DNA of 32,869 bases from a virus (Duplodnaviria > Heunggongvirae > Uroviricota > Caudoviricetes): IMG/VR virus record IMGVR_UViG_3300011584_000016, positions 1 through 32,869 of that record. One strand, written 5' to 3'. Shown in pieces: positions 4,837-28,782 of this stretch. Within the stretch, counting starts at the first letter, position 1; the number at the start of each line of letters is the position of its first letter. A program made the translations under genes and the position numbers. The notes under the pieces were generated by a model, which was not told the DNA's origin, did not search any database, and saw only the letters and a list, made by a program, of their open reading frames with translations.

Positions 4837-5038
4837 TAATTGCCCCGCCTGCGTTGTTGATCAGGCACACAATTTAATTAATGAATTCCGACAGGGTCGC
4901 CGCGATAAAGTGCGGCGGCTGGCGACTGGTTATCTGTCAATTGCAATCGGCAGATGTTGGCGGTTACTGAGTAAAAACGACGGCCAGCAATGGACTTTAT
5001 TAACTCACGAACGATATAACAAGGAATATAAAAAATGA
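4817..5038 (+). CDS. Hypothetical small protein (CPAC motif)
   Basis: 73-aa ORF overlapping the exonuclease 3' end by 20 nt and ending in ATGA overlap with the Dam gene. Confidence 0.35.
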   Translation: MIRRKNDNCPACVVDQAHNLINEFRQGRRDKVRRLATGYLSIAIGRCWRLLSKNDGQQWTLLTHERYNKEYKK

Positions 5039-6051
5039 TCAGACCGTTTTTGAAGTGGGCAGGTGGAAAAACTCGCGCTTTGCCTGAGCTGCTGCCGCAC
5101 TTGCCAAAGGGTTATTGTCTGATGGAACCATTTGTTGGCGGCGGTTCGGTATTTTTAAACACAAGTTATGATAAGTATGTTTTAGCTGATATTAATTCAG
5201 ATCTGATAAATACGTATGAAAACGTGAAACATCGCACTAATCTATTTATTGACGTTGCACGGGAATTATTTAAAGAAGGTAATTCAAAAGAATATTATTT
5301 AAAGATTCGCAAAGAATTTAACGAACTAAATACAAGTTACCACGAATGCGGTCGCCGCCCCTTATCACTGAGATTGTCGTTAATGCAGTCGGCGCGGTTT
5401 CTCTATTTGAATCGGCACGGTTATAACGGCGTTTGCCGCTATAACAATAAACTGGAATACAATGTTCCGTTTGGTCAACATAAGACAGCGCCGTATTTTC
5501 CCGAAGAGGAGATCCGGCGGTTTGCAGAAAAGGCGAATGATACAAACGCAGTGTTTCTCAATCTTAATTTTGATGACACATTATCAATGCTGACATTCGG
5601 GCCTAATCTCGTTATTTACTGCGATCCGCCATATTTACCCGCCAGCGAAACCGCAGACTTTACCACGTATTACGGACAGAGATTTACGCGGGACGATCAC
5701 TGCCGCTTAGTTCAGAAATTATTAGAAATAAGTGCGCGTGGTGCTGCAAAAGTTGTTATTTCAAACAGCGACACACCCGCCGCGCGAGAAATATACGTGT
5801 CGTTTACATTTCAGGAAATTAATGTTCAACGGTCAGTCAGTGCCAATACCAGCAAACGCGCGACTGCAAAAGAAGTGATCGGATATATCCCACATTGTGA
5901 ATATTGCGGGGGTCGTCTGATTACTGGCCGTCCGTGTAGTTGTGACACCCAACGCCGCACGGTTTGGGGTTGCCCTGATGGCGGCTGCGGAGCTTGTGAC
6001 AGTGTCGATCTTTGTGCGAGCGCGGGGAGTGAATTCTATGACCAGGACTAG
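5035..6051 (+). CDS. dam: DNA N6-adenine methyltransferase (Dam-like) with Cys-rich C-terminal extension
   Basis: N-terminal FLKWAGGK (AdoMet motif) and catalytic DPPY; C-terminal about 60 aa carry 9 Cys (HCEYCGG...CSCD...GCPDGGCGACDSVDLC). Confidence 0.85.
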   Translation: MIRPFLKWAGGKTRALPELLPHLPKGYCLMEPFVGGGSVFLNTSYDKYVLADINSDLINTYENVKHRTNLFIDVARELFKEGNSKEYYLKIRKEFNELNTSYHECGRRPLSLRLSLMQSARFLYLNRHGYNGVCRYNNKLEYNVPFGQHKTAPYFPEEEIRRFAEKANDTNAVFLNLNFDDTLSMLTFGPNLVIYCDPPYLPASETADFTTYYGQRFTRDDHCRLVQKLLEISARGAAKVVISNSDTPAAREIYVSFTFQEINVQRSVSANTSKRATAKEVIGYIPHCEYCGGRLITGRPCSCDTQRRTVWGCPDGGCGACDSVDLCASAGSEFYDQD

Positions 6052-6235: not shown

Positions 6236-6636
6236 CAATTCACATAGTAGCGATTCAGCCGGATTATTTTCAGCCAGTGTTAAAACGCGAAAGACGCGCG
6301 GTGCTGTTAAATGAGGGGGATTATATAAAAGAAGATTTTTTATTTATCCGTGAGTTTGTTTTTGACGATACAGGAAAGAATCCGCCAACGGCGACAGGGG
6401 CTTGTGTCGCCGGGGTGATTACTGATGTTTATAAGACGGGGACTGGCGATGTTTTGCTGAGTTTTGATCTGTTATTTGTGTATAGCTATGTGCTTATTAA
6501 TTGGGGTCTGACAAGAGGTGATCTGCTTAAACTGAGTATTTACCCTGACTTTCTTGAAGAGCTTTTTACCGCGCACCCTCATTCGCCCGTATTTTACGCG
6601 ATCGCTTACCGCATGATTGAAGAGGCGGATTTATGA
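6232..6636 (+). CDS. Hypothetical protein, possibly ASCH/DUF3850-like
   Basis: 134-aa ORF coupled to the upstream gene by ATGA overlap; fold call is from general resemblance only. Confidence 0.4.
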   Translation: MTIHIVAIQPDYFQPVLKRERRAVLLNEGDYIKEDFLFIREFVFDDTGKNPPTATGACVAGVITDVYKTGTGDVLLSFDLLFVYSYVLINWGLTRGDLLKLSIYPDFLEELFTAHPHSPVFYAIAYRMIEEADL

Positions 6637-6673
6637 CCGCCTATTACAACGAAATCGATCCATTCGCTGCTCT

Positions 6674-9181
6674 GTGGCTGGCGTCTATCAATTGACGCGC
6701 GGACGCTACGCCCCAACACCGCCGCCCCCGTTCCTGGGGAGCGGCGCAGACACTACACTGTATCCATACGCGTGGAACGCCCCGCGCGCAGCAATTAGCG
6801 TTGACCGGACGCCGAAACATGATCCGCAGGAGTTCGCCGCAGAATACGAATTCTGGCAGCGTGTAAAATCCACTTTTCAGCCATATCCGACATTCATCCG
6901 CCGCCGCATGATGGCGCGCGTTGAACGTTCTCACGAAAAGCAGGGGCGACACGTCGCGGCGCTGGCGCTGCGAGATATCGCCAGCCGCGAATTAATCCAC
7001 ATTTCCGCCGTTATGCAGCAGTATTCCATAAGCCCGCCCCGCAATGCTGGGCGGGTTTATGAAACGCCGTTTGTTGGCCTTGAGCCGCTCTATCACAATT
7101 TTGAACAACTCACCGATCTGATCCGTCGTTTCGACACACTGCCTGATTATTCGCCGGAGGATGTTGAATTACTGGCGCAGGACGTCGCAATTTACGCAAA
7201 CGCCACACTGGCAGAAATTGCCGCAGATTGTGAACACCTGGACGAAATCGAAACTGGCCGGCGGTTTTACGCTGAATTGAAAACGTTGGCTAACGTTTTT
7301 CACGTCACGGCGGCAAGGGCAAACAAAAAACGCTTGTTGCCCGACGAGCTGGCGGCAGCGATCAGCAAAATGATCGACGCGCGCTACTGGAACCGCAATT
7401 TACTGCGTTACGCCGTGCGCTGGCGGGAGCATTTGCGGATCTCCCTGGGCGACGTGCGCCGCAGCGTGTCAACCTATTGTAGTAAAGAACGCGTGAATGC
7501 GTGGCGGGAGCGTCGCGAGCGTAATCGCGACATCATGTCAAGACTGGAAATAGAAGACGTTGAATCAGGCGAGCGTTTTTCACTGCTGGAGCAGATAGAA
7601 AAAAGCGCGTCCAATCCAGCGATACGCCGCACCGAGCTTATGACGCGAATCGGCGGTTTTGAGCGAGTAGCCAATGAGCAGGGATTTGTCGGCAGCTTTT
7701 TTACTATTACCGCGCCGTCAAAATATCACGCGTTTACCGCGTTTGGTCATCGTAATCCTAAGTGGCAAGGCGCTAGCCCGCGCGAGTCTCAAAAATACCT
7801 GAATACCATTTGGCAGCGTATCCGCGCCGAGCTGGCGCGCCAGGAAATCGGCGCTTTTGGCTTACGTGTAGCCGAGGCGCATCACGACGCAACGCCGCAC
7901 TGGCACGGCCTGTTATTCACTCTGCCGGAGCATCAGGAGGCGCTACGCGACGTCATGCAGCGTTACGCAACAGCTGAGGACGCCGACGAATTAACGACGA
8001 AACACGGCATACAGCCGCGTTTCGATTTCAAACCGATTGATCCCGAGCGGGGAACCGCTACGGGCTATATCGTCAAATACGTCTCTAAAAATATCGACGG
8101 TTACGCGCTGGATAATGAGCGCGACGACGAAAGCGGACGTCCACTGAAAGACACGGCGCAACATGCGACCGCGTGGGCGTCTACGTGGGGGATCAGGCAG
8201 TTCCAGTTTTTGGGCGGTGTGCCGGTGTCGGTGTACCGCGAACTGCGGAGGCTGGGGAATCAACAGGCCGCTGATCAGATTAATCCGCTGTTTGCCGAGA
8301 TCCACGCCGCAGCGGACGCGGGGGATTGGGGCGGGTTTGTTAATCTCATGGGCGGACCGCTGGCAAAACGCGCGGATTTACCGTTGCGCACGTTTTATCA
8401 GGATAAACCGGAGCCTAACAGCTGGGGCGAATATCTGACGGTTATCCGTGGTGTATTTATGCCGCTGATTAATATCCCGCCGGTAATAACCAGGTTGCGG
8501 GATTTTCGCATTGTTAAAAAATCGCCGGAGAGCGCGGAGCGCCCCGGTGATGGCTGTTCATCTTTTGACCTTAAGGGCGCGTCTGCGCCCGCTAGGACTC
8601 GTGTCAATAACTGTACGGAGCATGAAAAAACAGCAAAAGATGAACAAAATATAAACAGTGAAGCGGATTTTTTGGGAGAGAAAAACAGCGGTGCGCCGCC
8701 ACCGGGAGATCCCGAACAGGTTCTGATCGGCAAATTGACACGGGAACAACGCAAACGCCTGCGCGCTGAGTGTCTGACGCACAAAAAACAGCGTAAACAA
8801 TCGGCTGCTGACGAGTTCGAAGCGCTGGCGAATCAATTAGCGACGGCGGACTGTTCGGGCACGGACCAGCTGCGCGCAGAAAATTATTTACGTGCGGCGG
8901 CGGTCATTCGCGAGACTGAAAAACCGGTCACGGCTGCAGCGGCAGAACTGGCCGCGCGCGTCATGGAGTGGGCGAAATTGCGCAAAATACCGCTGGGCCG
9001 CGCGCAATCGCTGGCACTGGCGCAAGGCGGACAGGCGACAGTTATTGACAACGTTTACCGGGCTAACATGAACACCGGCGAACTGATCCTGATTGACACC
9101 TTCCAGCCGTGGCGGCGTGTGCTGGCGAAAAAACAAACTGTGGAACTGATGGCGCGCTGGCGGGCTGTGGTAACCGTATGA
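6674..9181 (+). CDS. A: Rolling-circle replication initiator, P2 gpA-like HUH endonuclease
   Basis: HUH motif TPHWHGLLF, catalytic tyrosines GYIVKYVSKNIDGY, and N-terminal GRY...YAWNAPR resembling P2 gpA as I recall it; start uncertain (GTG 6674, TTG 6617/6692 or ATG 6908). Confidence 0.85.
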   Translation: MAGVYQLTRGRYAPTPPPPFLGSGADTTLYPYAWNAPRAAISVDRTPKHDPQEFAAEYEFWQRVKSTFQPYPTFIRRRMMARVERSHEKQGRHVAALALRDIASRELIHISAVMQQYSISPPRNAGRVYETPFVGLEPLYHNFEQLTDLIRRFDTLPDYSPEDVELLAQDVAIYANATLAEIAADCEHLDEIETGRRFYAELKTLANVFHVTAARANKKRLLPDELAAAISKMIDARYWNRNLLRYAVRWREHLRISLGDVRRSVSTYCSKERVNAWRERRERNRDIMSRLEIEDVESGERFSLLEQIEKSASNPAIRRTELMTRIGGFERVANEQGFVGSFFTITAPSKYHAFTAFGHRNPKWQGASPRESQKYLNTIWQRIRAELARQEIGAFGLRVAEAHHDATPHWHGLLFTLPEHQEALRDVMQRYATAEDADELTTKHGIQPRFDFKPIDPERGTATGYIVKYVSKNIDGYALDNERDDESGRPLKDTAQHATAWASTWGIRQFQFLGGVPVSVYRELRRLGNQQAADQINPLFAEIHAAADAGDWGGFVNLMGGPLAKRADLPLRTFYQDKPEPNSWGEYLTVIRGVFMPLINIPPVITRLRDFRIVKKSPESAERPGDGCSSFDLKGASAPARTRVNNCTEHEKTAKDEQNINSEADFLGEKNSGAPPPGDPEQVLIGKLTREQRKRLRAECLTHKKQRKQSAADEFEALANQLATADCSGTDQLRAENYLRAAAVIRETEKPVTAAAAELAARVMEWAKLRKIPLGRAQSLALAQGGQATVIDNVYRANMNTGELILIDTFQPWRRVLAKKQTVELMARWRAVVTV

Positions 9182-9351
9182 ATGTTAATGTTATTTTAGG
9201 AGAGAAGTTATAGGCGATTTACTCAAGCAGATTTGGTAATATCAGCGGAATTGATGCATGGTTTATTATTGTCAGCAATGGAAGGTATATTATTAATTTA
9301 GGCTTATATTTGTTCTGCAAGTATAAAATATAAAATGGCTTGAGGTAAAAT

Positions 9352-10674
9352 ATGTACGCTGAGTTAAATGAATTTATAAATGCTCTAGATAAATTAAAAG
9401 ATTATTTTGATGAGTCTGAAAAATCATATGGGCATAAAAATAAATGGCTTATAGAAGCATTTGGCATCGGTCATCCTGTAATGTTGCCAAAAGACTTTTC
9501 TGACTATATTGAAAGAATGATCGAGAAGTCAAAAAAATTAGAGATGCTTAAATTAACTGATTTCGAACTAGATGAACTCGACTATGTAAGAAAAGTCGTA
9601 ACAAAGGTACATTCTGACCTTGCTCCTAGCTTTTATAATGGAAATGGTGTACAAGCGATTCCTTCATTTTTAATGACCATGACATATATATCTTCATTTT
9701 TAGATTCTTTGATTTCCTTCGACCGACTCCAGGATACGGATGCCGTACCTCAGAAATTAGCACGTAAAATACGGAGTATGGATGCAAGAGTAAGACAAGC
9801 TACTCCAGAAATTGAAACACTGGAAGGTAAAATTAAATTGATTAACGATGCATATGCCGCAGCTGATAATCTACCGGTATATATGGAAGAGTTAAATAAA
9901 TACAAGGCAGAATTAACGGAAATAAAAGAGTACATTTTAAAGGCAAAAGAAGAAGCATCTCATTCGAATGTCTTAATGGATGTTTGTCTAAACGAAGGGG
10001 AAAAGATAAAAGAAGAGTTAAATGCAAAAAAAGAGATCGCAGAAAATTATCTTTCGAAATGTGAGGAAGCTATTCGTGCTTCGACTTCAAAAGGGTTAGC
10101 GGGAGCTTTTGAGATCAAAGCGAATAAGTTAAACTGTAGCATTCGTTTATGGGTAGCAGGATTATCTGCGGCATTAATTGCCGGTGGGTTTGTTGGTTAT
10201 GAAAGGTTAAAAGCATTATCCAATGTTTTAGCGCAACCAGATACCAGTGCAATAGTGATTGCAACGCAATTAATACTATCCATATTTAGTATCGGCGCGC
10301 CGCTTTGGTTTGCGTGGTTGTCTACAAAGCAAATTAATCAAAGATTTAAGCTAGCAGAAGATTATGCCTTTAAGTCTGCCGTTGCAAAAGCATATGAGGG
10401 TTACAGAAAAGAAGCATCGCAACTTGATGATGGAACATTCGCTACTCGGTTGTTTGATTCTGCTTTAACCCGTCTAGAGGAAGCCCCATTAAGATTTGTC
10501 CAAGGTGATGATCACTCAACACCATGGATGGAAATGTTAAACTCTAAAGCTTTTTCTAAATTTCTTGATTCTTCGATTGATAATGTAAACTATGTTAAAA
10601 ATATCCTTGATCGTAAGGCTAAACCCTCTGTAGTTGCAGATAAGCCACAGCAGATGGAAAAGGGGACTGAATAA
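9352..10674 (+). CDS. AT-rich cargo gene: 440-aa coiled-coil protein with two predicted TM helices, unknown function
   Basis: GC content visibly lower than flanking phage genes; GAGG RBS; hydrophobic segments IRLWVAGLSAALIAGGFVGY and AIVIATQLILSIFSIGAPLWFAWL; no nucleotide-binding or nuclease motif seen. Confidence 0.7.
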   Translation: MYAELNEFINALDKLKDYFDESEKSYGHKNKWLIEAFGIGHPVMLPKDFSDYIERMIEKSKKLEMLKLTDFELDELDYVRKVVTKVHSDLAPSFYNGNGVQAIPSFLMTMTYISSFLDSLISFDRLQDTDAVPQKLARKIRSMDARVRQATPEIETLEGKIKLINDAYAAADNLPVYMEELNKYKAELTEIKEYILKAKEEASHSNVLMDVCLNEGEKIKEELNAKKEIAENYLSKCEEAIRASTSKGLAGAFEIKANKLNCSIRLWVAGLSAALIAGGFVGYERLKALSNVLAQPDTSAIVIATQLILSIFSIGAPLWFAWLSTKQINQRFKLAEDYAFKSAVAKAYEGYRKEASQLDDGTFATRLFDSALTRLEEAPLRFVQGDDHSTPWMEMLNSKAFSKFLDSSIDNVNYVKNILDRKAKPSVVADKPQQMEKGTE

Positions 10675-10680
10675 GATAAT

Positions 10681-10706
10681 GGGCAGTTCAAATCTGCCCT
10701 TTTTTT
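10681..10706 (+). terminator. Rho-independent terminator after the cargo gene
   Basis: Hairpin GGGCAG-ttcaaat-CTGCCC followed by 7 T; sits between convergent genes. Confidence 0.6.
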
Positions 10707-11019
10707 AGCTTGGTAACAACAGGTATAATGTTTTTTGTTTTTGTTCTGGCGACATCATATCGATCAGCGTTTTGATAGCGCGGTCAGATGAAAGCGCGCT
10801 GGGGCTTAATGTGTGAGAAAATGTTATATTAACGACGAAAGTATGACCGCACTCAACGTTATTACAGGCGCAATAAACATCTGATAGATGGGGATGTTTC
10901 CGCACGGTCTTTTTGATCGTTGAATTGCCGTTGCATTCCGGACAGATAATTTTCGGGCTGCGCAATTTGTTTCCCCTTAATCTATTTTTGAGCGGGGTAT
11001 ATTTTAACCGTTTAGCCAT
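10705..11019 (-). CDS. Ogr/Delta-family zinc-finger protein (late transcription activator-like)
   Basis: CPEC-x20-CAC-NNVEC-GHTF resembles the Ogr zinc finger (CQNVNCSATF in P2 Ogr as I recall); start overlaps the portal stop by 1 nt. Confidence 0.55.
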   Translation of the reverse strand: MAKRLKYTPLKNRLRGNKLRSPKIICPECNGNSTIKKTVRKHPHLSDVYCACNNVECGHTFVVNITFSHTLSPSALSSDRAIKTLIDMMSPEQKQKTLYLLLPS

Positions 11020-12053
11020 TATTTTTCATCCTCTATCGCTTTCGGTTTTTTGAATAACACCTGCATTGCGCGGGTAATTTCAGAATCACTATTGATTGCA
11101 TTCTCAATTAGCGCCTGCATGGGCCAGACTTCATCTAATTGATATACGGCACGGACTTTTAACGGGTCGCCCAGTCCGCCCACGTTATCCGGAATAATGC
11201 CCGCAAGGCCAGGCGGGAAGCGATGGGCGGTTAACTGGTCCTGTGCGGATATGCGCTTGATATTCACATATTCATCTTTTGTTGCGACATCACCCACAGG
11301 GATAATTTTAACGCCGTCTGGTTTACCGTTGGGGATGTTAATAAACATACTGCGGAAATTACCCGCGCCTTTTGACTGTTCTATTTTTTCAGAAATGGCC
11401 TTTTCCATTTCTGGTGATAAATCCGGATCGGTGGCATACAGGATATAACCTAAATGCGCCCCATTACGATAATATTTGCGGCGAAACATGGTCGCGTCAC
11501 TATTTAACATCGCCGACTGGATGCCGCCTAAATAATCCGGTTTTCCGTAAATCTGCTGCAACGTATCGTACTGACGGATAAAAATAATATCTTTTGCGGC
11601 ATATTCTTTATATTCGCCGTCGCGTAACAATAATTTTGTTTTGCCGTCAGTGGAACGCCGCACATAAACAGACGGCAGCGGGTACAGGCGCACGACCTGC
11701 CCGAAGCCGTTGCGGATCTTTAACAGCGCCACGTCACCGAACGTCACGAAGTTAACGGCCAGCGCCAGGGCGGTTTCAGGCGTCAGACCGCCGCCGCGAA
11801 GAAAACCCGCCGCGACCATTTTCGCGCGCGCCCCCAGACATGCGCCGTGGTACGTTGCGATGTCGGGCAATTTTGCCAGCGCTTCCCGGTCAATGGGCGG
11901 CGTCCAGTAGCCGTCTCCTTCATCTGTTACGCCATCATATGAACCCAGGCACGGCACGCGCTCGGCGTCGCCGAATTCCACGCTAAAAGACATCTGTTTT
12001 TGAATAGCTGGCGCGAGGGCCGGGGCTGGTTGTTGTTTTTTACGTTTTGCCAT
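11019..12053 (-). CDS. Q: Portal protein (P2 gpQ-like)
   Basis: 344 aa, the length I recall for P2 Q; directly downstream of the large terminase on the same strand. Confidence 0.9.
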   Translation of the reverse strand: MAKRKKQQPAPALAPAIQKQMSFSVEFGDAERVPCLGSYDGVTDEGDGYWTPPIDREALAKLPDIATYHGACLGARAKMVAAGFLRGGGLTPETALALAVNFVTFGDVALLKIRNGFGQVVRLYPLPSVYVRRSTDGKTKLLLRDGEYKEYAAKDIIFIRQYDTLQQIYGKPDYLGGIQSAMLNSDATMFRRKYYRNGAHLGYILYATDPDLSPEMEKAISEKIEQSKGAGNFRSMFINIPNGKPDGVKIIPVGDVATKDEYVNIKRISAQDQLTAHRFPPGLAGIIPDNVGGLGDPLKVRAVYQLDEVWPMQALIENAINSDSEITRAMQVLFKKPKAIEDEK

Positions 12054-17604: not shown

Positions 17605-18229
17605 AACCGACCTGCGCGGCCAGCGTGAGGCGCTAATCAGGCTTTCGGCGCTGGAACTGCCACCGGCAAAGCGGCGGCAGGTTTTGCAGAATGCCGCCAG
17701 GCGGATTAAGCGGGAAGCGCAGCAGAACGCCAGGGCGCAGCGGACACCGGACGGGCGCGGATGGGAAAAGCGCCAGCGCGGCAGTAAAAAAATGATGCGT
17801 CGCATTCCTGCGCTAATGAGCATTACGCCGACTTCTGATGATGTGAAGTTGCACTGGAAAAACCCCGTTCATAGCGATATGGCAGCGCGCCATCACTACG
17901 GTAAGCCGGAACATGTGACGGCTGCGCAGCTCAAGCGCCAGCGCGGTCAGCCTGCATATGATGCGCCGGTCACGAGGGGGCAGGCGGTCAAGTTGCGGCA
18001 GCTGGGTTACACGGTTAAGCAAGGCAAAAAGAAGAAAACGCCGTCAGTTAAATGGATTACGCAAAACGTTAAGCAAGGGCAGGCCGGATTAATAATCCGC
18101 GTTTTGAAACAAGAGGCAGCAAAAACGGAATGGGAAGTACCGGCCCACCCCCGCCCCTGGCTGGATACCCGCTCAAAACATAACGCGCGAATATTAGCGC
18201 AGGAATTAAAAAAGGTGAGGAAAAAATGA
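17597..18229 (+). CDS. Putative virion morphogenesis / tail completion protein (P2 gpS / Mu G-like)
   Basis: Likely GTG start at 17597 (GGGGTGG upstream) overlapping the previous stop; basic C-terminal half. Confidence 0.5.
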   Translation: MIRTDLRGQREALIRLSALELPPAKRRQVLQNAARRIKREAQQNARAQRTPDGRGWEKRQRGSKKMMRRIPALMSITPTSDDVKLHWKNPVHSDMAARHHYGKPEHVTAAQLKRQRGQPAYDAPVTRGQAVKLRQLGYTVKQGKKKKTPSVKWITQNVKQGQAGLIIRVLKQEAAKTEWEVPAHPRPWLDTRSKHNARILAQELKKVRKK

Positions 18230-19371
18230 CATTTCCACAAGTCCAGGTTAATCAAATTGATTTAGCGCAAAGCGCAACAAATGAAATTGAACGGCGTTTA
18301 TTATTTATCGGGTTCACTCCCCTTGAATTTACGCCGGGTTTTTATTCTATCAATTCGCAAACAGATTTAGATAAAATAGCTGATACCAGTAGTGATTACG
18401 GACGATCGCTTTTGGCTGCTAAATTAAACGCAGGTCAGAATTGGAGTGCGGCAGTTTATTTTATGGATTCCAATGAAAAATGGCAGGATGCGGTTCGAAA
18501 ATGTCAGGCATACGGTAGTTTTGAGGGGATTGTATTATTAGAGGATTTCGCTGGGTGGAATGAAGAGGAGTCCGGATTTTCGCTAACCAAAGGGGCAGGA
18601 GAAGCCGCCGCGATACGACAAGAATTGATCGCGACGTACGGGCGCTGGACGTGGTTTATTTTACCAGTTAAAGGTCCGCAGGATGCCGATATGACGTGGC
18701 AACAATATTCCGCTGCTTTAACGCAATGGCAAACGGGGTTAGTTGCTGATGGCGTTATGCTGGTTCCGCGTCTTTATGAGAATTTGCCAGGTGTAATTGC
18801 TGGACGTTTATGTAATCGACTGGTGACAATCGCAGATACTCCCGCGCGCGTTTTAACTGGATCGCTCGTGTATGTTGGCAACGCAACTAAAGATAAAAAC
18901 GGCGAGACGGTAACCGCGGATATTGTGCAGGCGCTGGACGCTGCTCGTTATTCCGTTCCGGTCACGTATGCAGATTTTGAGGGTATTTACTGGAACGATG
19001 GTCCGTTATTAGCGGCAAAGGGTAGCGACTATCAATCGATCCGTATTTTGCGAATTGTTGATAAAGTGGCGCGCCAGGTGCGTTTACTTGCTATTCGTAA
19101 TATTGGTAACCGTTCGTTAAATTCCACGCCCGCGAGCATGGAATATAACAAAATGGTTTTTGCGAAACCACTTCGCACAATGGCAAAAAGCAGCACTATT
19201 AATGGCGTTTCGTTCCCTGGGGAAGTTTATTCACCAAAAGAAGGCGACGTCGTCATTACGTGGATTGATTCCACGCACGTAAATATTTGCGTACAGGTGC
19301 GTCCGACAGAATGCCCGCTGGTTATTGTGGTTAATGTCATGGTCGATCTGTCTGTACAGAATGAGGTGTAA
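18226..19371 (+). CDS. Putative tail sheath-like protein
   Basis: 381-aa ORF immediately followed by a 153-aa tube-sized ORF. Confidence 0.5.
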   Translation: MTFPQVQVNQIDLAQSATNEIERRLLFIGFTPLEFTPGFYSINSQTDLDKIADTSSDYGRSLLAAKLNAGQNWSAAVYFMDSNEKWQDAVRKCQAYGSFEGIVLLEDFAGWNEEESGFSLTKGAGEAAAIRQELIATYGRWTWFILPVKGPQDADMTWQQYSAALTQWQTGLVADGVMLVPRLYENLPGVIAGRLCNRLVTIADTPARVLTGSLVYVGNATKDKNGETVTADIVQALDAARYSVPVTYADFEGIYWNDGPLLAAKGSDYQSIRILRIVDKVARQVRLLAIRNIGNRSLNSTPASMEYNKMVFAKPLRTMAKSSTINGVSFPGEVYSPKEGDVVITWIDSTHVNICVQVRPTECPLVIVVNVMVDLSVQNEV

Positions 19372-19373
19372 TT

Positions 19374-19835
19374 ATGAGCGGTTCAAAACGTATTTCTGGG
19401 ATGGCGTTTGATATTACGCTATTCAGCACAACAATTCATGTGAATAAAGTCACGCTGACTATTACGGATAACTCCGAAGTGGCGAAAACGCGCGGCATTC
19501 CCGACGGATACACGGACGGCGACGTAAGCGCCGAAGGTGATCTTGAACTGGATACTAAGAATTTTACGCGCTTTCATGATGCGGCAGCGGCGGCGGGAAG
19601 TTATCGCGGCATTGAACCGGAGGATATTTTATTTTACGCAAAGGCGGGCGACGAAAAAATTAAAGTGGAGGCGTTCGGCTGTAAATTTTTGCTGGACAGT
19701 CTTCTGGATATTGATACCGCTGGCAGTGATAAGTCTGTATATAAAGTAAAATATAAAGTTACTGCCCCGGAATTTATTAAGATAAACGGAATTCCTTATT
19801 TGTCCGCCGATGATGTCCGCGATCTGATCGGGTAA
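19374..19835 (+). CDS. Putative tail tube protein
   Basis: 153-aa ORF right after the sheath-like gene. Confidence 0.45.
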   Translation: MSGSKRISGMAFDITLFSTTIHVNKVTLTITDNSEVAKTRGIPDGYTDGDVSAEGDLELDTKNFTRFHDAAAAAGSYRGIEPEDILFYAKAGDEKIKVEAFGCKFLLDSLLDIDTAGSDKSVYKVKYKVTAPEFIKINGIPYLSADDVRDLIG

Positions 19836-19838
19836 TTT

Positions 19839-20141
19839 ATGCTAACGCCTCATGAAAAGGTCATGGTTACCCTGGCGGGCATCGGCGGATTAATCGGTCT
19901 GGCTAAAGTGCTGGAATCAACAGAACCGCTGACAACCAGGCTAATTATTGGCCGTGTGATACTGGGGTCCGCAGTCTCAATGTGCGCCGGGGCCGCATTA
20001 ATTCAGTTCCCCGACATGCCGCCAATTGCTATTAACGGCGTTGGCGCGGCACTGGGGATTGTGGGGTATCAGGCAGTTGAATTATGGCTGCGTAAACGTG
20101 CGCGTTTAAATTCAAAGAGTAAACAAAATGACACTGAGTGA
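19839..20141 (+). CDS. Putative holin (three predicted TM segments)
   Basis: 100 aa with three hydrophobic stretches and a charged C-terminus RKRARLNSKSKQ; overlaps the endolysin gene start. Confidence 0.5.
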   Translation: MLTPHEKVMVTLAGIGGLIGLAKVLESTEPLTTRLIIGRVILGSAVSMCAGAALIQFPDMPPIAINGVGAALGIVGYQAVELWLRKRARLNSKSKQNDTE

Positions 20142-20466
20142 AAAACAGTCGTTATTTACAGTAATGATCGGTCAGTTAATTTTCTATGCTGATCAACACG
20201 GTTTGCGCCTGACGTTTGGTGAAGCGTATCGCACACCGGAACAAGCAGCGCTAAACGCAAAAACGGGGCGTGGAATTAAAAATAGTTTGCATACTCAACG
20301 GCTGGCTATTGATTTTAATTTATTCGTAAACGGCGAATATAAAACAGACACCCGCGATTATCTCGCGCTTGGGGAATACTGGGAATCGATCGGCGGAACG
20401 TGGGGCGGGCGATTCAGCAAACAAGACGGCAATCATTTTAGTCTTGAGCATAACGGCATCAAATAA
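20128..20466 (+). CDS. Endolysin, M15-type zinc peptidase (L-alanyl-D-glutamate peptidase-like)
   Basis: H-x6-D (HTQRLAID) and C-terminal His (FSLEHNG) match the M15 zinc-ligand arrangement; 112 aa. Confidence 0.7.
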   Translation: MTLSEKQSLFTVMIGQLIFYADQHGLRLTFGEAYRTPEQAALNAKTGRGIKNSLHTQRLAIDFNLFVNGEYKTDTRDYLALGEYWESIGGTWGGRFSKQDGNHFSLEHNGIK

Positions 20467-20495
20467 CATTAAACACTAATTAACAGGAAATAAAA

Positions 20496-20756
20496 ATGGA
20501 CGAAATTATCACTCTGACTATCGGCGGCGTGGATGTGGTCTTTGAACCAAATGAGGTTGCCTACAATTCATATATTAATGAAATGGCGATGGATAACAAA
20601 GTCGCCCCATCAATTGAATACGTTCGCGCTATTGTCGCGCGTGAAAGTAAAGATGCGCTGGCAACTATCCTGAAAAAACCAGGTGCGGCAATTCAGATCG
20701 CAGCGGCGGTAAATAAACAGTACGCGCCAGAACTGGATATTGTAGTAAAAAAATAA
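20496..20756 (+). CDS. Tail assembly chaperone (P2 gpE-like), short form
   Basis: 86-aa ORF upstream of the tape measure; AGGA RBS; ends in A-run slippery site. Confidence 0.6.
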   Translation: MDEIITLTIGGVDVVFEPNEVAYNSYINEMAMDNKVAPSIEYVRAIVARESKDALATILKKPGAAIQIAAAVNKQYAPELDIVVKK

Positions 20757-20935
20757 ATACCCGCGTTCAGGCTATAGATAATAACGGCTTAGAGCAAATG
20801 CTAACGTTACGCCGTTATTATCTGCCTGATGCTGACGACTCTGAACAATCGTTAGCGCGCGCGGTCTGGCTGGATAACCGTTATTGGGAAAATTTCAGCG
20901 TAAGCGTGGCGAATGGAATCGCAAAAATCTTTTAG
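20496..20935 (+). CDS. Tail assembly chaperone -1 frameshift fusion product (E+E'-like), slip at A_AAA_AAA 20747-20753
   Basis: The -1 frame from 20753 is open for 60 codons (INTRVQAIDN...GIAKIF) to TAG 20933-20935, ending 7 nt before the tape-measure ATG. Confidence 0.55.
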
Positions 20936-20942
20936 GTGAATT

Positions 20943-23354
20943 ATGTCCAGTGAATCGTTAACGTATGTTATATCGCTGATTGACCGCGCCAGCGCCCCGC
21001 TGCGCGGTATTCGTCAGCAAGTTGGCGCGCTGGGGCAAACAGCTAAAAACGGTGCGCAGCAGGTCGCAATGGGAACCGCCGCGATGTGGGCGGCGGGGCA
21101 GGCTATTAAAAGTGGGCTTGAACCTGCTATTGAAATGCGTCGCGCGCTGGCGTCGGTTGAGGCGCTGGAAGTAACCAAAGACGGATTAAAAAAATTACAA
21201 AATGCGGCGCTTGATTTCAGTATGCAATATGGAACCAGCGCAACAGAAATTGTCGGCGCGTCTTATGATATCCAGTCTGCTATTTCTGGACTATCCGCAG
21301 ATGAATTAACAGGATTTACTACAACGTCAGCATTAGTTGCAAAAGCAACGAAAGCCAACACGGCGACCATGACTAATTATATGGGGACCATGTACGGCAT
21401 TTTTAAACAGACTGCTGATGGAATGGGTAAAATTAAGTGGGCGGAAAAAATAGGCGGGCAAACGGCCTACGCTGCCAATTTATTTAAATCTGATGGTGAA
21501 TCAATGTCGCAGGCGTTTACCGCGCTGGGGGCGTCTGCGCAAACTGCGGGGCGCACCAGTGCGGAGCAGTTTGCAATATTGGGTCAATTGCAATCCACAA
21601 TGTCAGGTAGTGAAGCGGGAACGAAATACAAAGCATTTTTAGCCGGTGTCGGGAAAGCGCAAAAAACGCTGGGCATGAAATTTACTGATGCAACCGGACA
21701 AATGAAGTCAATGCCGGATATTCTGGACATGCTGCATAAACGGTTCGGAAATATCAGCAAAGTAGCGGATTCTGATTTACTAAAAAAAGCGTTTGGTACT
21801 GATGAAGCTGTATCGCTAATTAAACTGTTGATCAGCGACACTGACGGATTAAAACGCAGTATCAACGAAATTGACGCGATCAACGGGCTGGACGACGTTA
21901 AACGCGCCGCCGCAACAGTTGCTGATCCGTGGGAGCGAGCCGCCGCAGGTATTACAGCAGTTAAAATTTCGCTGGGTAGTGCACTATTACCGGTGTTAGA
22001 GCCAGTGTTATTGAAAATGGTGAAAATGTCTGACGAGCTGGTCACCTGGCTGAATAAATTCCGCAATATCGCACGTTGGATCGGTATTGTGACTGCGTCA
22101 GTTGTTGGCGCAACGGCTGCGGGTGCAGCGTTTTCCATTATGCTGGGTGGCCTTAAACTGGCGGGGGCGGGAATTAGATTGGCAGGGATATTCACGGGTA
22201 TTACTCCAATGTTTAAATTACTCTGGCGGGGCGTTACTGCTATTTTTAATTTTTCCGGCGCGCTGAAATATTTACGCGTGGCGTTATTTGGCGCACGTCT
22301 GTCGTTAATGTCGTTTGGTGGGACGTTAGCAGTTGTAACCGCGCCAGTATGGGGGATCGTCGCGTTAATCGCTCTGGCGATCGGTGCTGTGGTTGTTTTA
22401 GTGGTTCGTTTCTGGAATCCGATCAAGGCGTTTTTCAGCGGTTTTGCCACTGGTTTCATGCAGGCCGCGCAAAAATCTTCCGTTCTGCAATCTGTTATAG
22501 CGGCGTTGGGGCCGGTGTTTTCTGCTGTTTGCTCTGTAGTTAGTTGGTTGTGGACTGGAATTAAGGATCTGTGTGGCTGGTTCGGGCAGTTGCTGACACC
22601 GATTCAATATACAGAAAGTGAATTAGCGTCGTTTTCTGATGCTGGCAGCACTGCGGGAAATATTGTTGCTGCTGCGTTCGATATTATTTTATACCCCATC
22701 AACTTGATTATTACGGCGGTGAGCGGATTAATTAAAATATGGCCTGATGTGGTCGCGGGCTGGAATATTGTTACCGCAGCGTTCTCGGCTTTTTCATTCG
22801 CTGATACGTTTAAATCAGGTGTTGAATCAATCGGTAATTTATTTTCGAATTTGTGGGAATCAATCAAACAACAATTTTACGGCGTTTTTAACAGCATTGT
22901 TGAACAGCTCAATAAATTACCGGGCGTCGAAATTGAGTTGATGGGGTCGGTGAATACTGCGGCAGGCGTTGCGGGAATCGCATCGCAACAGCCGGGAGGG
23001 ATTGCCCCCGGTGATATTCCCGGAGTATTAGCAATACCGGGTGTTGCGCCTATCCCCGGTGTCGCGCCCGTAGCCGCCCCGGTTCCGGCTGCTGCGGCGG
23101 CTGTTCATGCTGGCGTGTTAACTGTACCGGGTATTGCGCCACTTTCCGCACCTGTTGCTACTCCTGCGCCGGTCGCCGCAGCTCCGCTAACTGGCGGGAA
23201 ATTAAATCCGGGCGTTGTTGGGTCCGGGAATAAAACAACGAAAATAACCAGCAATATCAATAATAGCCGGACTGTGGGAGCCGTTAACGTCTACGTACAG
23301 CAAGCGCAGGACGCGCAGCAAATATCAGAACTTGCAGAAATGGCGGCAGCATGA
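20943..23354 (+). CDS. Tail tape measure protein
   Basis: 803 aa; central hydrophobic segments; C-terminal Pro/Ala/Val-rich low-complexity region; follows the chaperone frameshift pair. Confidence 0.85.
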   Translation: MSSESLTYVISLIDRASAPLRGIRQQVGALGQTAKNGAQQVAMGTAAMWAAGQAIKSGLEPAIEMRRALASVEALEVTKDGLKKLQNAALDFSMQYGTSATEIVGASYDIQSAISGLSADELTGFTTTSALVAKATKANTATMTNYMGTMYGIFKQTADGMGKIKWAEKIGGQTAYAANLFKSDGESMSQAFTALGASAQTAGRTSAEQFAILGQLQSTMSGSEAGTKYKAFLAGVGKAQKTLGMKFTDATGQMKSMPDILDMLHKRFGNISKVADSDLLKKAFGTDEAVSLIKLLISDTDGLKRSINEIDAINGLDDVKRAAATVADPWERAAAGITAVKISLGSALLPVLEPVLLKMVKMSDELVTWLNKFRNIARWIGIVTASVVGATAAGAAFSIMLGGLKLAGAGIRLAGIFTGITPMFKLLWRGVTAIFNFSGALKYLRVALFGARLSLMSFGGTLAVVTAPVWGIVALIALAIGAVVVLVVRFWNPIKAFFSGFATGFMQAAQKSSVLQSVIAALGPVFSAVCSVVSWLWTGIKDLCGWFGQLLTPIQYTESELASFSDAGSTAGNIVAAAFDIILYPINLIITAVSGLIKIWPDVVAGWNIVTAAFSAFSFADTFKSGVESIGNLFSNLWESIKQQFYGVFNSIVEQLNKLPGVEIELMGSVNTAAGVAGIASQQPGGIAPGDIPGVLAIPGVAPIPGVAPVAAPVPAAAAAVHAGVLTVPGIAPLSAPVATPAPVAAAPLTGGKLNPGVVGSGNKTTKITSNINNSRTVGAVNVYVQQAQDAQQISELAEMAAA

Positions 23355-23686
23355 CGGACAAAATATATATTGATTTGCGAATTATCGACGGTGATTTTTT
23401 ATTAAATACAGGACGTGAGCCGACGTTATGCGATAACCGCGTCAGTATTGGACAGGATATCAAACACGCAATTATTGAGAGTAATTACGCAACGCAGTTA
23501 ATCGGCCAGCGATCCGCTGTGTTGCGCAATGACGTCTATCTGAAAATTATTTTAATGATTGAAACGGATATTCGCCTGATCCCTGGAACCGTACGTGTAT
23601 ACGAAGAGGGCGCAGGGCGTTTTATTGTCACTGCTGAAACGTATGAATTTGGGCTAATTGATCCGATCGAGGTGGTTTATGAGTGA
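23351..23686 (+). CDS. Putative baseplate protein (gpW/gp25-like size and position)
   Basis: 111-aa ORF overlapping the tape-measure stop and preceding the J-like gene. Confidence 0.45.
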   Translation: MTDKIYIDLRIIDGDFLLNTGREPTLCDNRVSIGQDIKHAIIESNYATQLIGQRSAVLRNDVYLKIILMIETDIRLIPGTVRVYEEGAGRFIVTAETYEFGLIDPIEVVYE

Positions 23687-24863
23687 CGCGCCGAAACCAG
23701 ATTACCGCGCGCTATTGAATGACGCAGGTTTGCCGGGGACTGAAAAAGAGATTCAGGCGAAATTCCAGACCATTGCTGACGACGAAGGCCTGATCACAAA
23801 CACATCAACAATGTCACCATTCTGGCGACTGATCAAAGCGATCGTCACGCGCCCGGTGTTGTGGCTGCGCGATGTGCTGGCCGACGTTGTGCTAACTAAC
23901 TTGTTTGTTGCAACAGCGGGCGGAACCTGGCTGGATTTGCTGGCGTGGGCTGTTCGTCTGGAGCGCAAAGAAGCGACGCCAGCGCACGGCGCGGTAACGT
24001 TTATTAAAAACAGCGCGGCGGATACCGTCACGATCCCTGCCGGAACGATTGTTCAGACTGAACGTGTTAACGGCGAGGTTTATCGCCTGATTGTTGACAA
24101 AACAACGATTATTCCGGCTGGTATTGAGCGGTTATCGCTCGCGTGTACCGCTGAAACAGCGGGCAGCGCGTGGAATCTCGCCCCGGGTTATTACCACGTT
24201 TTACCGGTCGCCGTCGCGGGCGTTATTGAGGTCACAACAAATGACGACTGGCTGACAATGCCGGGCGCGGATCGTGAATCTGATGATGAATTCCGCCCAC
24301 GGATACGCAATCAATTTAACGTTGTGGGCAATTACCACATTGACGCCGTTTACCGGTCCGCCGTCGCCAGCGTGGCGGGGCTGAGTACCGACCGCATATT
24401 TTTCTTACATGACGCCCCGCGCGGCCCAGGTACGGCCAACGCTTATTTATTACTTGATGCGGGCGTCGTTAGCGATCCGTTTATCACCGCAGTGAATAAC
24501 TACGTAATGGGGCAGGGAAACCACGGACACGGCGACGATATGCAGTGTTTCCCGATGCCGGAGACATTTCACGATCTGATTGTCACGTTACACGCACCGG
24601 ATAACGCGATGCTGACTGACGCGGAACGCGCTGATCTGCCCGCAGCCGTTGAAAACATAATTCGCTGTGCGTTCCGTGAAAACTCCGCATATCAGGTAAC
24701 GAAAACGTGGCCCTGGTCGCGGTTTGGGTTTTCAAAACTGGGGGAGGAAATTCACGAACTATTTCCAGCGCTGTCGTCTGTTGAATTTTCGCTGGGCGAT
24801 ATCGTCAGTGAATTGAGTATTCCGCGTTTACGTTCGCTATCAGTGAAGTGGGGCGGCGCATGA
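23679..24863 (+). CDS. Baseplate J-like protein
   Basis: About 395 aa from ATG 23679 (GAGGTG RBS), in the expected position before the I-like and fibre genes. Confidence 0.7.
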   Translation: MSDAPKPDYRALLNDAGLPGTEKEIQAKFQTIADDEGLITNTSTMSPFWRLIKAIVTRPVLWLRDVLADVVLTNLFVATAGGTWLDLLAWAVRLERKEATPAHGAVTFIKNSAADTVTIPAGTIVQTERVNGEVYRLIVDKTTIIPAGIERLSLACTAETAGSAWNLAPGYYHVLPVAVAGVIEVTTNDDWLTMPGADRESDDEFRPRIRNQFNVVGNYHIDAVYRSAVASVAGLSTDRIFFLHDAPRGPGTANAYLLLDAGVVSDPFITAVNNYVMGQGNHGHGDDMQCFPMPETFHDLIVTLHAPDNAMLTDAERADLPAAVENIIRCAFRENSAYQVTKTWPWSRFGFSKLGEEIHELFPALSSVEFSLGDIVSELSIPRLRSLSVKWGGA

Positions 24864-25390
24864 ACATTAAATTGCCATGCTGGATGAATCGCGGTGAACC
24901 GCAAAAATTGGCCGCGGTGTGTAAAAAATTTTGGTTGTGGCTTGATAGCTGGCTGCGCTGGCCGCTGCAACAATTCGACGCGCTGAACTGTAACGAAACG
25001 ATCCTGTATTTGCTGGCGTGGCAGCGTGATGTAACGCGCCTGACTGGCGAACCGCTGGAACTGTTCCGCCGTCGCGTAAATTTTGCGTTTATCAACGCGC
25101 AGGACGCAGGCAGCACTGCCGGTTTTCTGCGGATATTTGAGCGGCTGGGGATCGGGTTTGTTGGTATTAACGAGCGTGTAGAGGGTATCGACTGGGACGT
25201 AATTTTATTAGATCTGACAGATAAACAGATATCTGAAAACGGCGATCTGTTGCGTGAAATAGTCAGGCAATACGGATGTACGTGTCGCCGTTACAGATTT
25301 CAGTCTGTTACGTCAACGCCGATCAATTTACGGGCAGGCAGTGTTCAAAATGATTACGTGTGTAACACCGCGTCATTAATCAGGGAATAA
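24860..25390 (+). CDS. Tail protein I-like (baseplate)
   Basis: About 176 aa from ATG 24860 (ATGA overlap with J stop), directly before the fibre gene. Confidence 0.55.
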   Translation: MNIKLPCWMNRGEPQKLAAVCKKFWLWLDSWLRWPLQQFDALNCNETILYLLAWQRDVTRLTGEPLELFRRRVNFAFINAQDAGSTAGFLRIFERLGIGFVGINERVEGIDWDVILLDLTDKQISENGDLLREIVRQYGCTCRRYRFQSVTSTPINLRAGSVQNDYVCNTASLIRE

Positions 25391-25392
25391 AA

Positions 25393-27693: not shown

Positions 27694-27697
27694 CTCA

Positions 27698-28300
27698 ATG
27701 AAATACGCTTATTACAATCCTGTTGATTTTAAAGTTTTACAGTGGCTGGATACCGATCAATTCAATATCGTTTTACCCGAATCAATTATGCCCGTCACTG
27801 ACACGCAGTGGCGCTACCGTGATCGCGATTGTTGGGTAAATCCAGCGGCGGGGAAATTAGTAACAACACCGCCGCCGGGTGAATTTTATCGCCTGAGCGG
27901 GGATAAGTGGGTTTACGACTCTGGCGCATTCGCTACCGCGCTGGAACACTCAAAAACAGCAGTTAATCAGGCAATCAAACTACACCGCGACGCGCTGACA
28001 GCTGATTACGTTGAAATTGACGGTCATCATTTCCACAGTGACGCAAACAGCCGCATTCAACAAATGACGCTGGCAAGAATGGGGGCCGCTGGCGCGGTTC
28101 CGCAGGGCCTAATGTGGCAAACAAAAAATCACGGATTGATCGAACTGACAAACGAGATCGCCGCGCAATTTGAAACGGTCACTATCGCGCACGACATGCG
28201 CCTGTTTGCAACCGCTCAGGCACACATTAACGCCGTGGCCATGCTGGAAACTATTGAGGACGTAAATAAATACGACTGGTCGCAGGGGTGGCAGCTATGA
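27698..28300 (+). CDS. Putative tail fibre assembly protein
   Basis: About 200 aa from ATG 27698, directly after the fibre gene. Confidence 0.5.
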   Translation: MKYAYYNPVDFKVLQWLDTDQFNIVLPESIMPVTDTQWRYRDRDCWVNPAAGKLVTTPPPGEFYRLSGDKWVYDSGAFATALEHSKTAVNQAIKLHRDALTADYVEIDGHHFHSDANSRIQQMTLARMGAAGAVPQGLMWQTKNHGLIELTNEIAAQFETVTIAHDMRLFATAQAHINAVAMLETIEDVNKYDWSQGWQL

Positions 28301-28782
28301 GCGTGTTTATTGCGTTTTACCGGGGCAACAGCTCGCGGCGCGGTCTGACGCGTTTTAAAGACTGGGCGATAAGAATGATCACGCGCAGTATTTATTCTCA
28401 TTGTGAGATTGCCACCGGGCCGAGTGATTACGAAACGCATACGCAATTTGTATGCAGATCGTCGTCATGGCGTGATGGCGGGGTCAGGGAAAAAAGAATG
28501 GCGTTGCCGATCGACAAATGGGACCTGGTCGAAATTAACGCGACGCCCCATGAAGTCGCTGTATTTTTTGAAAAGCTCAAAGGCAAAAAATACGATCTCG
28601 CCGGTGTTTTCGGCTTTTTGTTGTTCTGCCGTGGCAATGTTGATCGCTGGTTTTGTAGTGAGTTTTGCGCGGAGTTTTTGGAGTTGCGCGACGCATGGCG
28701 ATATTCGCCGGGGCAGTTATACGCACTGGTTACCAGTGAACGGGAGCGGGGGTACACATGGCGTGGAGTAACGGACAACTAA
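28297..28782 (+). CDS. Hypothetical protein, possibly permuted papain-fold Cys peptidase-like
   Basis: ATGA overlap with upstream gene; SHCEIA and WFCSEFC motifs; fold call very tentative. Confidence 0.35.
   Translation: MSVFIAFYRGNSSRRGLTRFKDWAIRMITRSIYSHCEIATGPSDYETHTQFVCRSSSWRDGGVREKRMALPIDKWDLVEINATPHEVAVFFEKLKGKKYDLAGVFGFLLFCRGNVDRWFCSEFCAEFLELRDAWRYSPGQLYALVTSERERGYTWRGVTDN

Follow-up and report, generated by a model that had tools for sequence, protein, structure and literature searches.

A conserved membrane-hairpin protein encoded as single-gene cargo at the P2 tin/old hotspot is a candidate anti-phage factor

In phage P2, old and tin lie between the replication gene A (gpA) and the portal gene Q, at a site adjoining cos that two papers describe as a hotspot of anti-phage systems and for which 1,650 gene arrangements have been reported in the literature; a second hotspot, between the tail-fibre assembly and sheath genes, holds fun (Z) in P2. 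Old is a nuclease and an ATPase. Here we characterize the gene that occupies the first of these sites in a P2-like prophage (IMG/VR record IMGVR_UViG_3300011584_000016; the whole stretch of 32,869 nt that was analysed is referred to as the window). The open reading frame (ORF), hereafter the cargo gene, encodes a 440-residue protein with two predicted transmembrane (TM) segments. We find the gene to be real, intact and under selection, a horizontally acquired accessory cassette of one gene at P2 defence hotspot 1, and we tentatively favour the reading that its product acts on its own at the membrane as an anti-phage factor of the abortive-infection type.

The cargo gene shares with P2 old, tin and fun (Z) the same two insertion sites and the same logic of phage-dispensable prophage cargo. 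The proteins, however, show no sequence relation (no match in PADLOC, where models for them are expected), and in contrast to Old the cargo product is a membrane protein without an enzymatic domain. A relative has been catalogued before: Rousset et al. 2022 (PMC9122126) list in their Table S5B a P2-hotspot system 102, found 32 times, lacking a Pfam domain and described as '2 TM', which belongs to the same family (TSKGLAGAF, GAPLWFAWLSTKQINQRFKLAEDYAFKASVAKAYEGY and RLFDSALSRLEEAPLRF motifs) and occupies the same gpA-portal locus. It is a different allele from the window gene and was catalogued only, not cloned, and the family motifs are absent from the tables of cloned or tested systems in that study (Table S2). 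They are likewise missing from the supplements of Vassallo et al. 2022 and from the 2026 preprint on P2/P4 hotspots, and neither motifs nor accessions occur in the DefensePredictor 2026 supplements, several tables of which were covered in part. DefensePredictor DS-37 and DS-10, both validated, of similar size and from a paper in which a figure legend includes TM and coiled-coil labels, were considered as possible counterparts and set aside, as their sequences are unrelated.

Lactococcal AbiZ carries C-terminal TM helices. It resembles the cargo protein in being a single-protein abortive-infection factor without a recognisable domain, and it is proposed to work together with the phage holin at the membrane, causing premature lysis. 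AbiZ provides a precedent for a domain-less single protein that can abort infection at the membrane. It differs in being encoded on Gram-positive plasmids, and the PADLOC scan detected no sequence similarity: no AbiZ model was found among the PADLOC matches at E≤1, on the assumption that PADLOC 2.0 holds such a model. SLATT-type two-TM effectors of CBASS-like (cyclic-oligonucleotide-based anti-phage signalling) and other conflict systems are alike in their two-helix hairpin, which is proposed to oligomerise into a pore. The cargo protein, in contrast, lacks a SLATT/DUF4231 match, coupling to a nucleotide-signal sensor and a partner gene. An initial annotation of the locus, made from the sequence, had proposed a comparison with known defence families, SLATT-like effectors included; no SLATT/DUF4231 Pfam match was obtained with the query or among the 25 most frequent families matched by 42 family members at E≤5, and these models were also unmatched in ten further members.

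We built an AlphaFold2 monomer model of the cargo protein on 42 homologues (mean predicted local distance difference test score, pLDDT, 74). In this model, a very long helix (residues 174-294) spans the heptad-rich stretch into the first hydrophobic segment and is followed by a turn and a second long helix (residues 300-356), the first part of which is the second hydrophobic segment; the chain ends in shorter helices and a disordered tail. A separate model of residues 229-440 gives a long helical hairpin. The two adjacent TM helices and the C-terminal domain named in the initial annotation are recovered, with hydrophobic segments at residues 263-285 and 302-325 (Kyte-Doolittle, 19-residue windows above 1.6, maximum 2.03). 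Because the outer flanks of the hairpin carry three and four lysine or arginine (K/R) residues, versus one in the 16-residue loop between the helices, both termini are assigned to the cytoplasm by the positive-inside rule, and only the short loop would be periplasmic; hydropathy and K/R counts together predict a two-pass inner-membrane protein with both ends cytoplasmic. The description of the N-terminal half as one long coiled coil holds in part: a strong heptad signal is confined to residues ~127-235, whereas residues 1-~125 are modelled as a compact four-helix bundle. Weak matches to coiled-coil Pfam families were seen in 13-18 of the 42 members. Towards the C-terminus, helix 366-383 (RLFDSALTRLEEAPLR) is strongly amphipathic (its hydrophobic moment, 0.60, exceeds the 99th percentile of shuffled sequences).

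Conservation is concentrated in and directly behind the hairpin. Expressed as majority frequency over the alignment of 42 sequences, it averages 0.44 in the N-terminal bundle (residues 1-130) and 0.47 in the coiled coil (131-235), then 0.72 in the juxtamembrane helix (236-262), 0.65 in TM1 (263-285), 0.74 in TM2 (302-325), 0.88 in the post-TM helix (326-356) and 0.77 in the next helix (357-382), before it drops to 0.57 (383-410) and finally to 0.30 in the tail (411-440). TM1 displays a stripe of small residues that spans four turns (G270 and G282 in 42/42 sequences; A274 as 36 A and 6 S; G278 as 37 G and 5 A), and in TM2 residues S313, P317, W319 and W322 are each invariant (42/42). Behind the membrane, the motifs TKQIxQRFxLAEDYxFKxxVAKAYEGY and RLFDSALTRLEEAPLR are near-invariant. 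Distant phage-borne relatives (360-392 aa) have a plain coiled coil instead of the N-terminal bundle; because they swap the N-terminus yet keep the core, the membrane hairpin appears to be the conserved business end of the protein, and its TM segments look functional rather than like a passive anchor. The ratio of nonsynonymous to synonymous substitution rates between the window and N1420 (see below) alleles is 0.12 for the cargo gene and 0.11 for gpA, and residues 236-382 differ by 12 synonymous and no nonsynonymous changes. The cargo gene thus evolves under purifying selection.

The cargo protein shares a conserved small-xxx-small stripe on a hydrophobic helix with the type VII secretion effector TelE and with Caulobacter CdzC/D; according to two reports, the toxicity of membrane-damaging toxins such as TelE depends on glycine zippers, which also mark the Cdz bacteriocins (PMC10434224, PMC5380434). 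Those proteins, in contrast, are secreted antibacterial toxins without homology to the cargo protein, whose zipper lies in TM1 of what is predicted to be a resident inner-membrane protein.

In the window, gpA is followed by the cargo ORF, an Ogr-like gene, the portal gene and then the terminase (Table 1). The cargo ORF is therefore located between replication gene A and portal Q, at the equivalent of the P2 tin/old hotspot to which it had been assigned from the outset, and the content of the site is variable, related phages carrying other alleles or genes there. A close relative of the region is the prophage of E. coli strain N1420 (~97% identical), whose gpA copy is 94.6% identical and labelled replication endonuclease in RefSeq; over the stretch compared, the window is identical to IMG/VR contig IMGVR_UViG_3300028969_000137. 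The window allele of the cargo gene is found in 1/5,426 complete E. coli genomes. Its GC content is indeed lower than that of its neighbours, as initially noted, at 36% (28% at third codon positions, GC3) versus 51-56% in gpA and portal. Likewise present are the AT-rich upstream region, the ribosome-binding site (GAGG, 6 nt upstream of the ATG) and the gene's own terminator, a GC hairpin (GGGCAG-TTCAAAT-CTGCCC) followed by seven T residues. An own promoter is plausible in such AT-rich DNA; a promoter scan gave 9 candidates versus 6.9 expected from shuffles, which is not above chance. The Ogr-type late promoter dyad (TGT-N12-ACA) was found at one site, 9118, and its eight occurrences in the 32.9-kb window versus ~8 expected by chance (an estimate for a 6-base motif) are uninformative. 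Rfam and tRNA scans of the window gave no match.

Table 1. Coordinates of the cargo gene, the predicted parts of its product and the flanking features in the window.
Feature	Position	Strand	Evidence and remarks
Gene A/Rep, P2-type replication endonuclease (left flank)	6617-9181	+	PF05840 Phage_GPA, E 6e-98; GC 0.559, GC3 0.598
AT-rich spacer 5' of cargo gene	9182-9351	+	GC 0.294; GAGG ribosome-binding site at 9342-9345
Cargo ORF, 440 aa, unnamed two-TM family PHROG 34659	9352-10674	+	GC 0.362, GC3 0.279
Variable N-terminal four-helix bundle, residues 1-~125, predicted cytoplasmic	9352-9726	+	AlphaFold2, pLDDT 82-95
Coiled-coil stalk, residues 127-235	9730-10056	+	Heptad contrast 0.53-0.85 over residues 127-224
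Juxtamembrane helix, residues 236-262, motif TSKGLAGAF	10057-10137	+	T245, G248, L249, A250, F253 invariant (42 sequences)
Predicted TM1, residues 263-285, glycine zipper G270-A274-G278-G282	10138-10206	+	Hydropathy and conservation
Short variable loop, residues 286-301, predicted periplasmic	10207-10254	+	Conservation 0.48; one K/R
Predicted TM2, residues 302-325, polar stripe Q/H306, S310, S313; P317; W319/W322	10255-10326	+	Hydropathy maximum here
Most conserved segment, residues 326-382, KQIxQRFxLAEDYxFKxxVAKAYEGY then RLFDSALTRLEEAPLR, predicted cytoplasmic helices	10327-10497	+	
Short helices and variable, probably disordered tail, residues 383-440	10498-10671	+	pLDDT 36-66
Intrinsic terminator of cargo gene	10681-10706	+	6-bp GC stem, 7-nt loop, seven T residues
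Ogr/Delta-like zinc-finger gene (right flank), convergent with cargo gene	10705-11019	-	PF04606, E 6e-13; GC 0.416, GC3 0.457
P2-type portal (Q) (right flank)	11019-12053	-	N1420 copy annotated phage portal protein; tblastn anchors, 20 IMG/VR loci; GC 0.507, GC3 0.536

Relatives of the cargo gene recur in several genomic settings. A 433-aa E. coli allele (51% identical) lies between tail-fibre assembly and tail sheath genes, which is the second P2 hotspot, and a 463-aa allele (45% identical), present in E. coli strain HS, is flanked in a 186-like prophage by a DinI-like gene on one side and the portal on the other. Of 69 IMG/VR loci, about 21 belong to hotspot 1 of P2/186-like phages, where the gene is convergent on the portal at a distance of 70-400 bp, three belong to hotspot 2 and the remainder are in unrelated temperate phages. 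The presence of relatives in both P2 defence hotspots strengthens the standing of the gene as a defence candidate. A 436-aa allele (WP_023155917, ~24 complete genomes) is found outside P2-like phages, at the far end of a small integrase/helix-turn-helix (HTH) islet at tRNA-Asn next to yeeJ (locus L086, 4311-5621; E. coli D7, NZ_CP010150).

An Ogr-like ORF also lies 3' of the gene in a 57%-identical hotspot-1 locus and in hotspot-2 loci. We considered a two-gene module with this neighbour and rejected it, given that the Ogr-like gene is the window's sole ogr, that the hotspot-2 copies are pseudogenes and that it is absent in the 186-like, non-P2 and chromosomal loci. Since it is the only tblastn ogr match in the window, it is probably the phage's own late activator and not cargo; the hotspot-2 phages keep a canonical ogr after gene D. 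The hotspot-2 Ogr/Delta-like pseudogene (L003, 9381-9587, minus strand; L021 and L024, 9297-9503; L025, 9308-9514) follows the intact 433-aa homologue at a distance of 79 bp and is convergent with it. Its first cysteine is changed to serine, it contains an in-frame stop and it is 45-46% identical to the Ogr-like protein of the window. On the simplest reading, some flanking DNA accompanied the cargo gene on its transfer from a hotspot-1 setting to hotspot 2, and only the membrane-protein gene was retained afterwards. The decayed Ogr relic beside an intact hotspot-2 gene thus supports both mobility between the hotspots and a single-gene unit. In agreement with this, no recurrent partner was found among 105 flanking ORFs in 33 non-P2 contigs, which include repressors, small terminases, integrases and methylases, and chromosomal copies stand alone, so that the single-gene cargo proposed at the start is well supported.

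The cargo protein matches PHROG 34659, a family of unknown function (E 4.6e-135, residues 33-428, profile positions 29-417 of 433), and more weakly PHROG 30912. A word-indexed search retrieved at least 1,369 family clusters at 90% identity, and an exhaustive profile search retrieved 2,134 clusters at 50% identity (E≤1e-3), with 531 at E≤1e-30; in nearly all of the best 150 listed clusters, the length is ~400-480 aa and the alignment runs end to end. The family ranges over Gamma- and Betaproteobacteria and many temperate phages, with Escherichia, Citrobacter, Enterobacter, Klebsiella, Yersinia, Pantoea, Aeromonas, Pseudomonas, Stenotrophomonas and Luteimonas as named sources and a more distant branch in Rhodanobacter, Achromobacter, Polaromonas and Candidimonas. 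All sources annotate its members as hypothetical. Four E. coli alleles together account for ~57/5,426 complete genomes. One E. coli/Shigella allele (cluster P0027) is often broken: more than 300 contigs, Shigella sonnei included, encode split products (216 aa and 174/222 aa), which makes them about as frequent as the intact 433-aa form. In addition, the insertion sequence IS1 interrupts one HS-type copy, and another allele has a 1-nt deletion. Defective copies of these kinds include L025 7929-8579 and hits H24 and H37.

Searches of Pfam, NCBIfam, PADLOC and PDB sequences with the cargo protein returned coiled-coil noise only, and the sub-threshold matches on the coiled-coil stretch include LmuB, ZorA, SMC, EzrA and Snapin. 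PADLOC-DB 2.0 gave no significant defence-family match, the best scores being those of LmuB and a type I methyltransferase (both E 8e-4) and ZorA (E 0.025), all on the coiled-coil stretch; the PDB sequence search gave one chance-level match. The early remark that no ATPase, nuclease or HTH motif is recognisable therefore stands for these four collections. Foldseek with the AlphaFold2 model against the PDB, a check proposed beforehand, found nothing at E≤0.001, and with the model of residues 229-440 it returned SMC arms, designed TM channels, T7 gp14, IpaB, YaxB and PspA alike, which is non-specific. A relation to SesA (PF17107) was dismissed as noise, the weak signal being present in 5/42 members and absent in ten members inspected individually. 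We also rejected a holin identity: the protein has 440 aa, there is no holin Pfam match, and the holin and lysozyme genes lie elsewhere in a related phage. Judged by sequence, the family falls outside every curated defence or domain family tested. The initial term 'unrecognised family' is accordingly right with respect to Pfam, NCBIfam, PADLOC and PDB, but the family corresponds to PHROG 34659 and to system 102 of Rousset et al. 2022.

We propose, tentatively, that the product is an inner-membrane protein held by its helical hairpin, with both ends in the cytoplasm, and that it would shield the lysogen from other phages. Its variable cytoplasmic bundle and coiled coil would act as a sensor or autoinhibitor that detects, or is released by, an infection cue, and the coiled coils would lead to oligomerisation. 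The glycine zipper would then pack TM1 helices together, the Q/H-S-S stripe of TM2 might line a pore or lesion, and the conserved cytoplasmic helices could gate or stabilise the assembly. Such a pore or lesion would collapse the membrane potential or bring about early lysis before the invader finishes, which amounts to abortive infection. Pore formation is a conjecture, since the AlphaFold2 monomer is only an extended hairpin. Beyond the conserved membrane hairpin itself, we infer topology, oligomerisation, pore formation, trigger and anti-phage function. A single-gene membrane effector in a prophage hotspot is a well-known kind of system, of which thousands of comparable candidates are currently predicted. 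Unknown hotspot genes are often defensive: in the 2026 preprint, protection was seen for 6/8 P4-hotspot loci of unknown function that had been picked at random, and 3/8 additional P2-hotspot systems protected against the phage panel used by Rousset et al. 2022 (PMC9122126); according to the preprint, 15-32% of unknown P2-hotspot proteins are predicted to be antiviral.

A bolder version of this mechanism is conceivable, and we regard it as improbable. The family would then be a widespread, self-contained sensor-pore, in which the cytoplasmic bundle and coiled coil directly gate their own glycine-zipper hairpin into an oligomeric pore on infection, with no enzymatic domain, second messenger or partner. 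It would be a counterpart in prokaryotes and phages, by analogy or perhaps by descent, of four-helix-bundle cell-death executioners such as MLKL (N-terminal domain) and the plant coiled-coil nucleotide-binding leucine-rich-repeat proteins (CC-NLRs), among them Rx and NRG1 (CC-R).

Several points weigh against an anti-phage function. The sole ground on which we infer it is guilt by location. Of the additional P2-hotspot systems tested, 5/8 gave no protection, and non-defence cargo such as partition genes fills about a quarter of P2 hotspots (PMC9122126). The searchable literature, a scope that does not include Brenes & Laub 2025, contains no experiment on any family member, and homology searches link the protein to no entry of PADLOC, Pfam, NCBIfam or the PDB. 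The far C-terminus of the hairpin model has low confidence. Frequent broken alleles could reflect a carriage cost or the decay of defective prophages, and the split copies of the E. coli/Shigella allele fit a cost or simple decay alike. Among the 105 neighbours in the 33 non-P2 phage contigs, there is no clear enrichment of defence families. Finally, the chromosomal copies in Luteimonas, Aeromonas and Pseudomonas are lone insertions among housekeeping genes. The Luteimonas copy directly follows recBCD, the Aeromonas copy separates fdhD from formate-dehydrogenase accessory genes, and the Pseudomonas copy comes after nrdAB; the 8 kb to each side of these three homologues, which are surrounded by wide intergenic gaps (gene at 8001-~9300 in loci L009, L010 and L012), yielded no phage or defence gene calls.

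The last two of these points, together with the common occurrence of non-defence cargo in the P2 hotspot and the hypothetical label that the family bears in all sources, speak for an accessory gene without any anti-phage role, which would serve in membrane stress, the envelope, host fitness or the phage cycle (lysis timing or maintenance of lysogeny). We consider this rather doubtful, though it is the alternative that survives best. It does not account well for a gene that recurs at, and moves between, two separate defence hotspots, that is sporadic (~1% of complete E. coli genomes), whose family has diversified rapidly into the 2,134 clusters, and whose N-terminus is variable while the core is conserved; in the 186-like relative, moreover, the gene does not adjoin the lysis genes.

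Small prophage membrane proteins such as P22 SieA, T4 Imm and HK97 gp15 are reported to block genome entry, and the cargo protein could likewise exclude superinfecting phages at the inner membrane without killing the cell. A predicted inner-membrane protein that is prophage-encoded, located at an exclusion/defence hotspot and devoid of an enzymatic domain in the Pfam and NCBIfam searches would suit this role. However, only ~16 poorly conserved residues would face the periplasm, the bulk and the best-conserved parts being cytoplasmic, a 260-residue cytoplasmic bundle and coiled coil has no obvious role in a simple entry block, and solo chromosomal copies exist outside prophages, so that we regard non-abortive exclusion as unlikely. 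Stabilisation of the prophage or islet by addiction, through a selfish membrane toxin with an unseen small-RNA or peptide antitoxin in the AT-rich flank, would fit the glycine-zipper hairpin, the 170-bp AT-rich upstream region and the frequent split or IS-interrupted alleles, but it is very improbable given that there is no conserved partner ORF, that Rfam finds no RNA in the window and that the lone ORF is intact and under purifying selection in many contexts.

Spacers in canonical type I-E CRISPR (clustered regularly interspaced short palindromic repeats) arrays of E. coli A7, F1267, AMSHJX01 and Combat11I9 match the prophage, nine over 32/32 positions and one over 28/32. The protospacers lie at window positions 7164-7195, 9484-9515, 9857-9888, 10397-10428, 10586-10617, 10645-10676, 11568-11599, 19578-19609, 20508-20539 and 25396-25427, and an AWG protospacer-adjacent motif is present at 10/10 of them (8 ATG, 2 AAG). 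Strain A7 has four consecutive spacers against the prophage, a pattern suggestive of primed acquisition. Of 5,426 complete genomes, 26 have a spacer that targets the cargo gene and only one has the gene itself. Targeting specific to the cargo was rejected: without the hits by which the arrays were found, there is one match in the cargo versus five in the backbone, which indicates that the whole phage is targeted.

Elsewhere in the window, a Dam-type methylase of 338 aa is encoded at 5035-6051 (plus strand), of which a related 186-like phage has a 285-aa version; the tail of the window's protein is cysteine-rich (…HCEYCGGRLITGRPCSCDTQRRTVWGCPDGGCGACDSVDLC), as if a zinc-binding module had been added. 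In its replication and head modules the phage is P2-like, whereas the tail region (18226-31911) differs in gene order and sizes from P2-like tails (locus L003), for example in a sheath gene (18226-19371) that precedes the tape-measure gene and in a last tail gene of 548 aa. No canonical ogr follows the tail region, which suggests a mosaic phage.

If the family is not protective, it would be a common occupant of the P2 hotspot that should not be counted as immunity. The glycine zipper, the polar stripe and the EDYxFK and AYEGY motifs offer immediate mutational handles. If the protein does protect against phages, a large family that current annotation tools do not recognise would be added to the defence catalogue, and it would provide a compact, one-gene (~430 aa) model for a membrane effector that senses infection without a separate sensor or signal.

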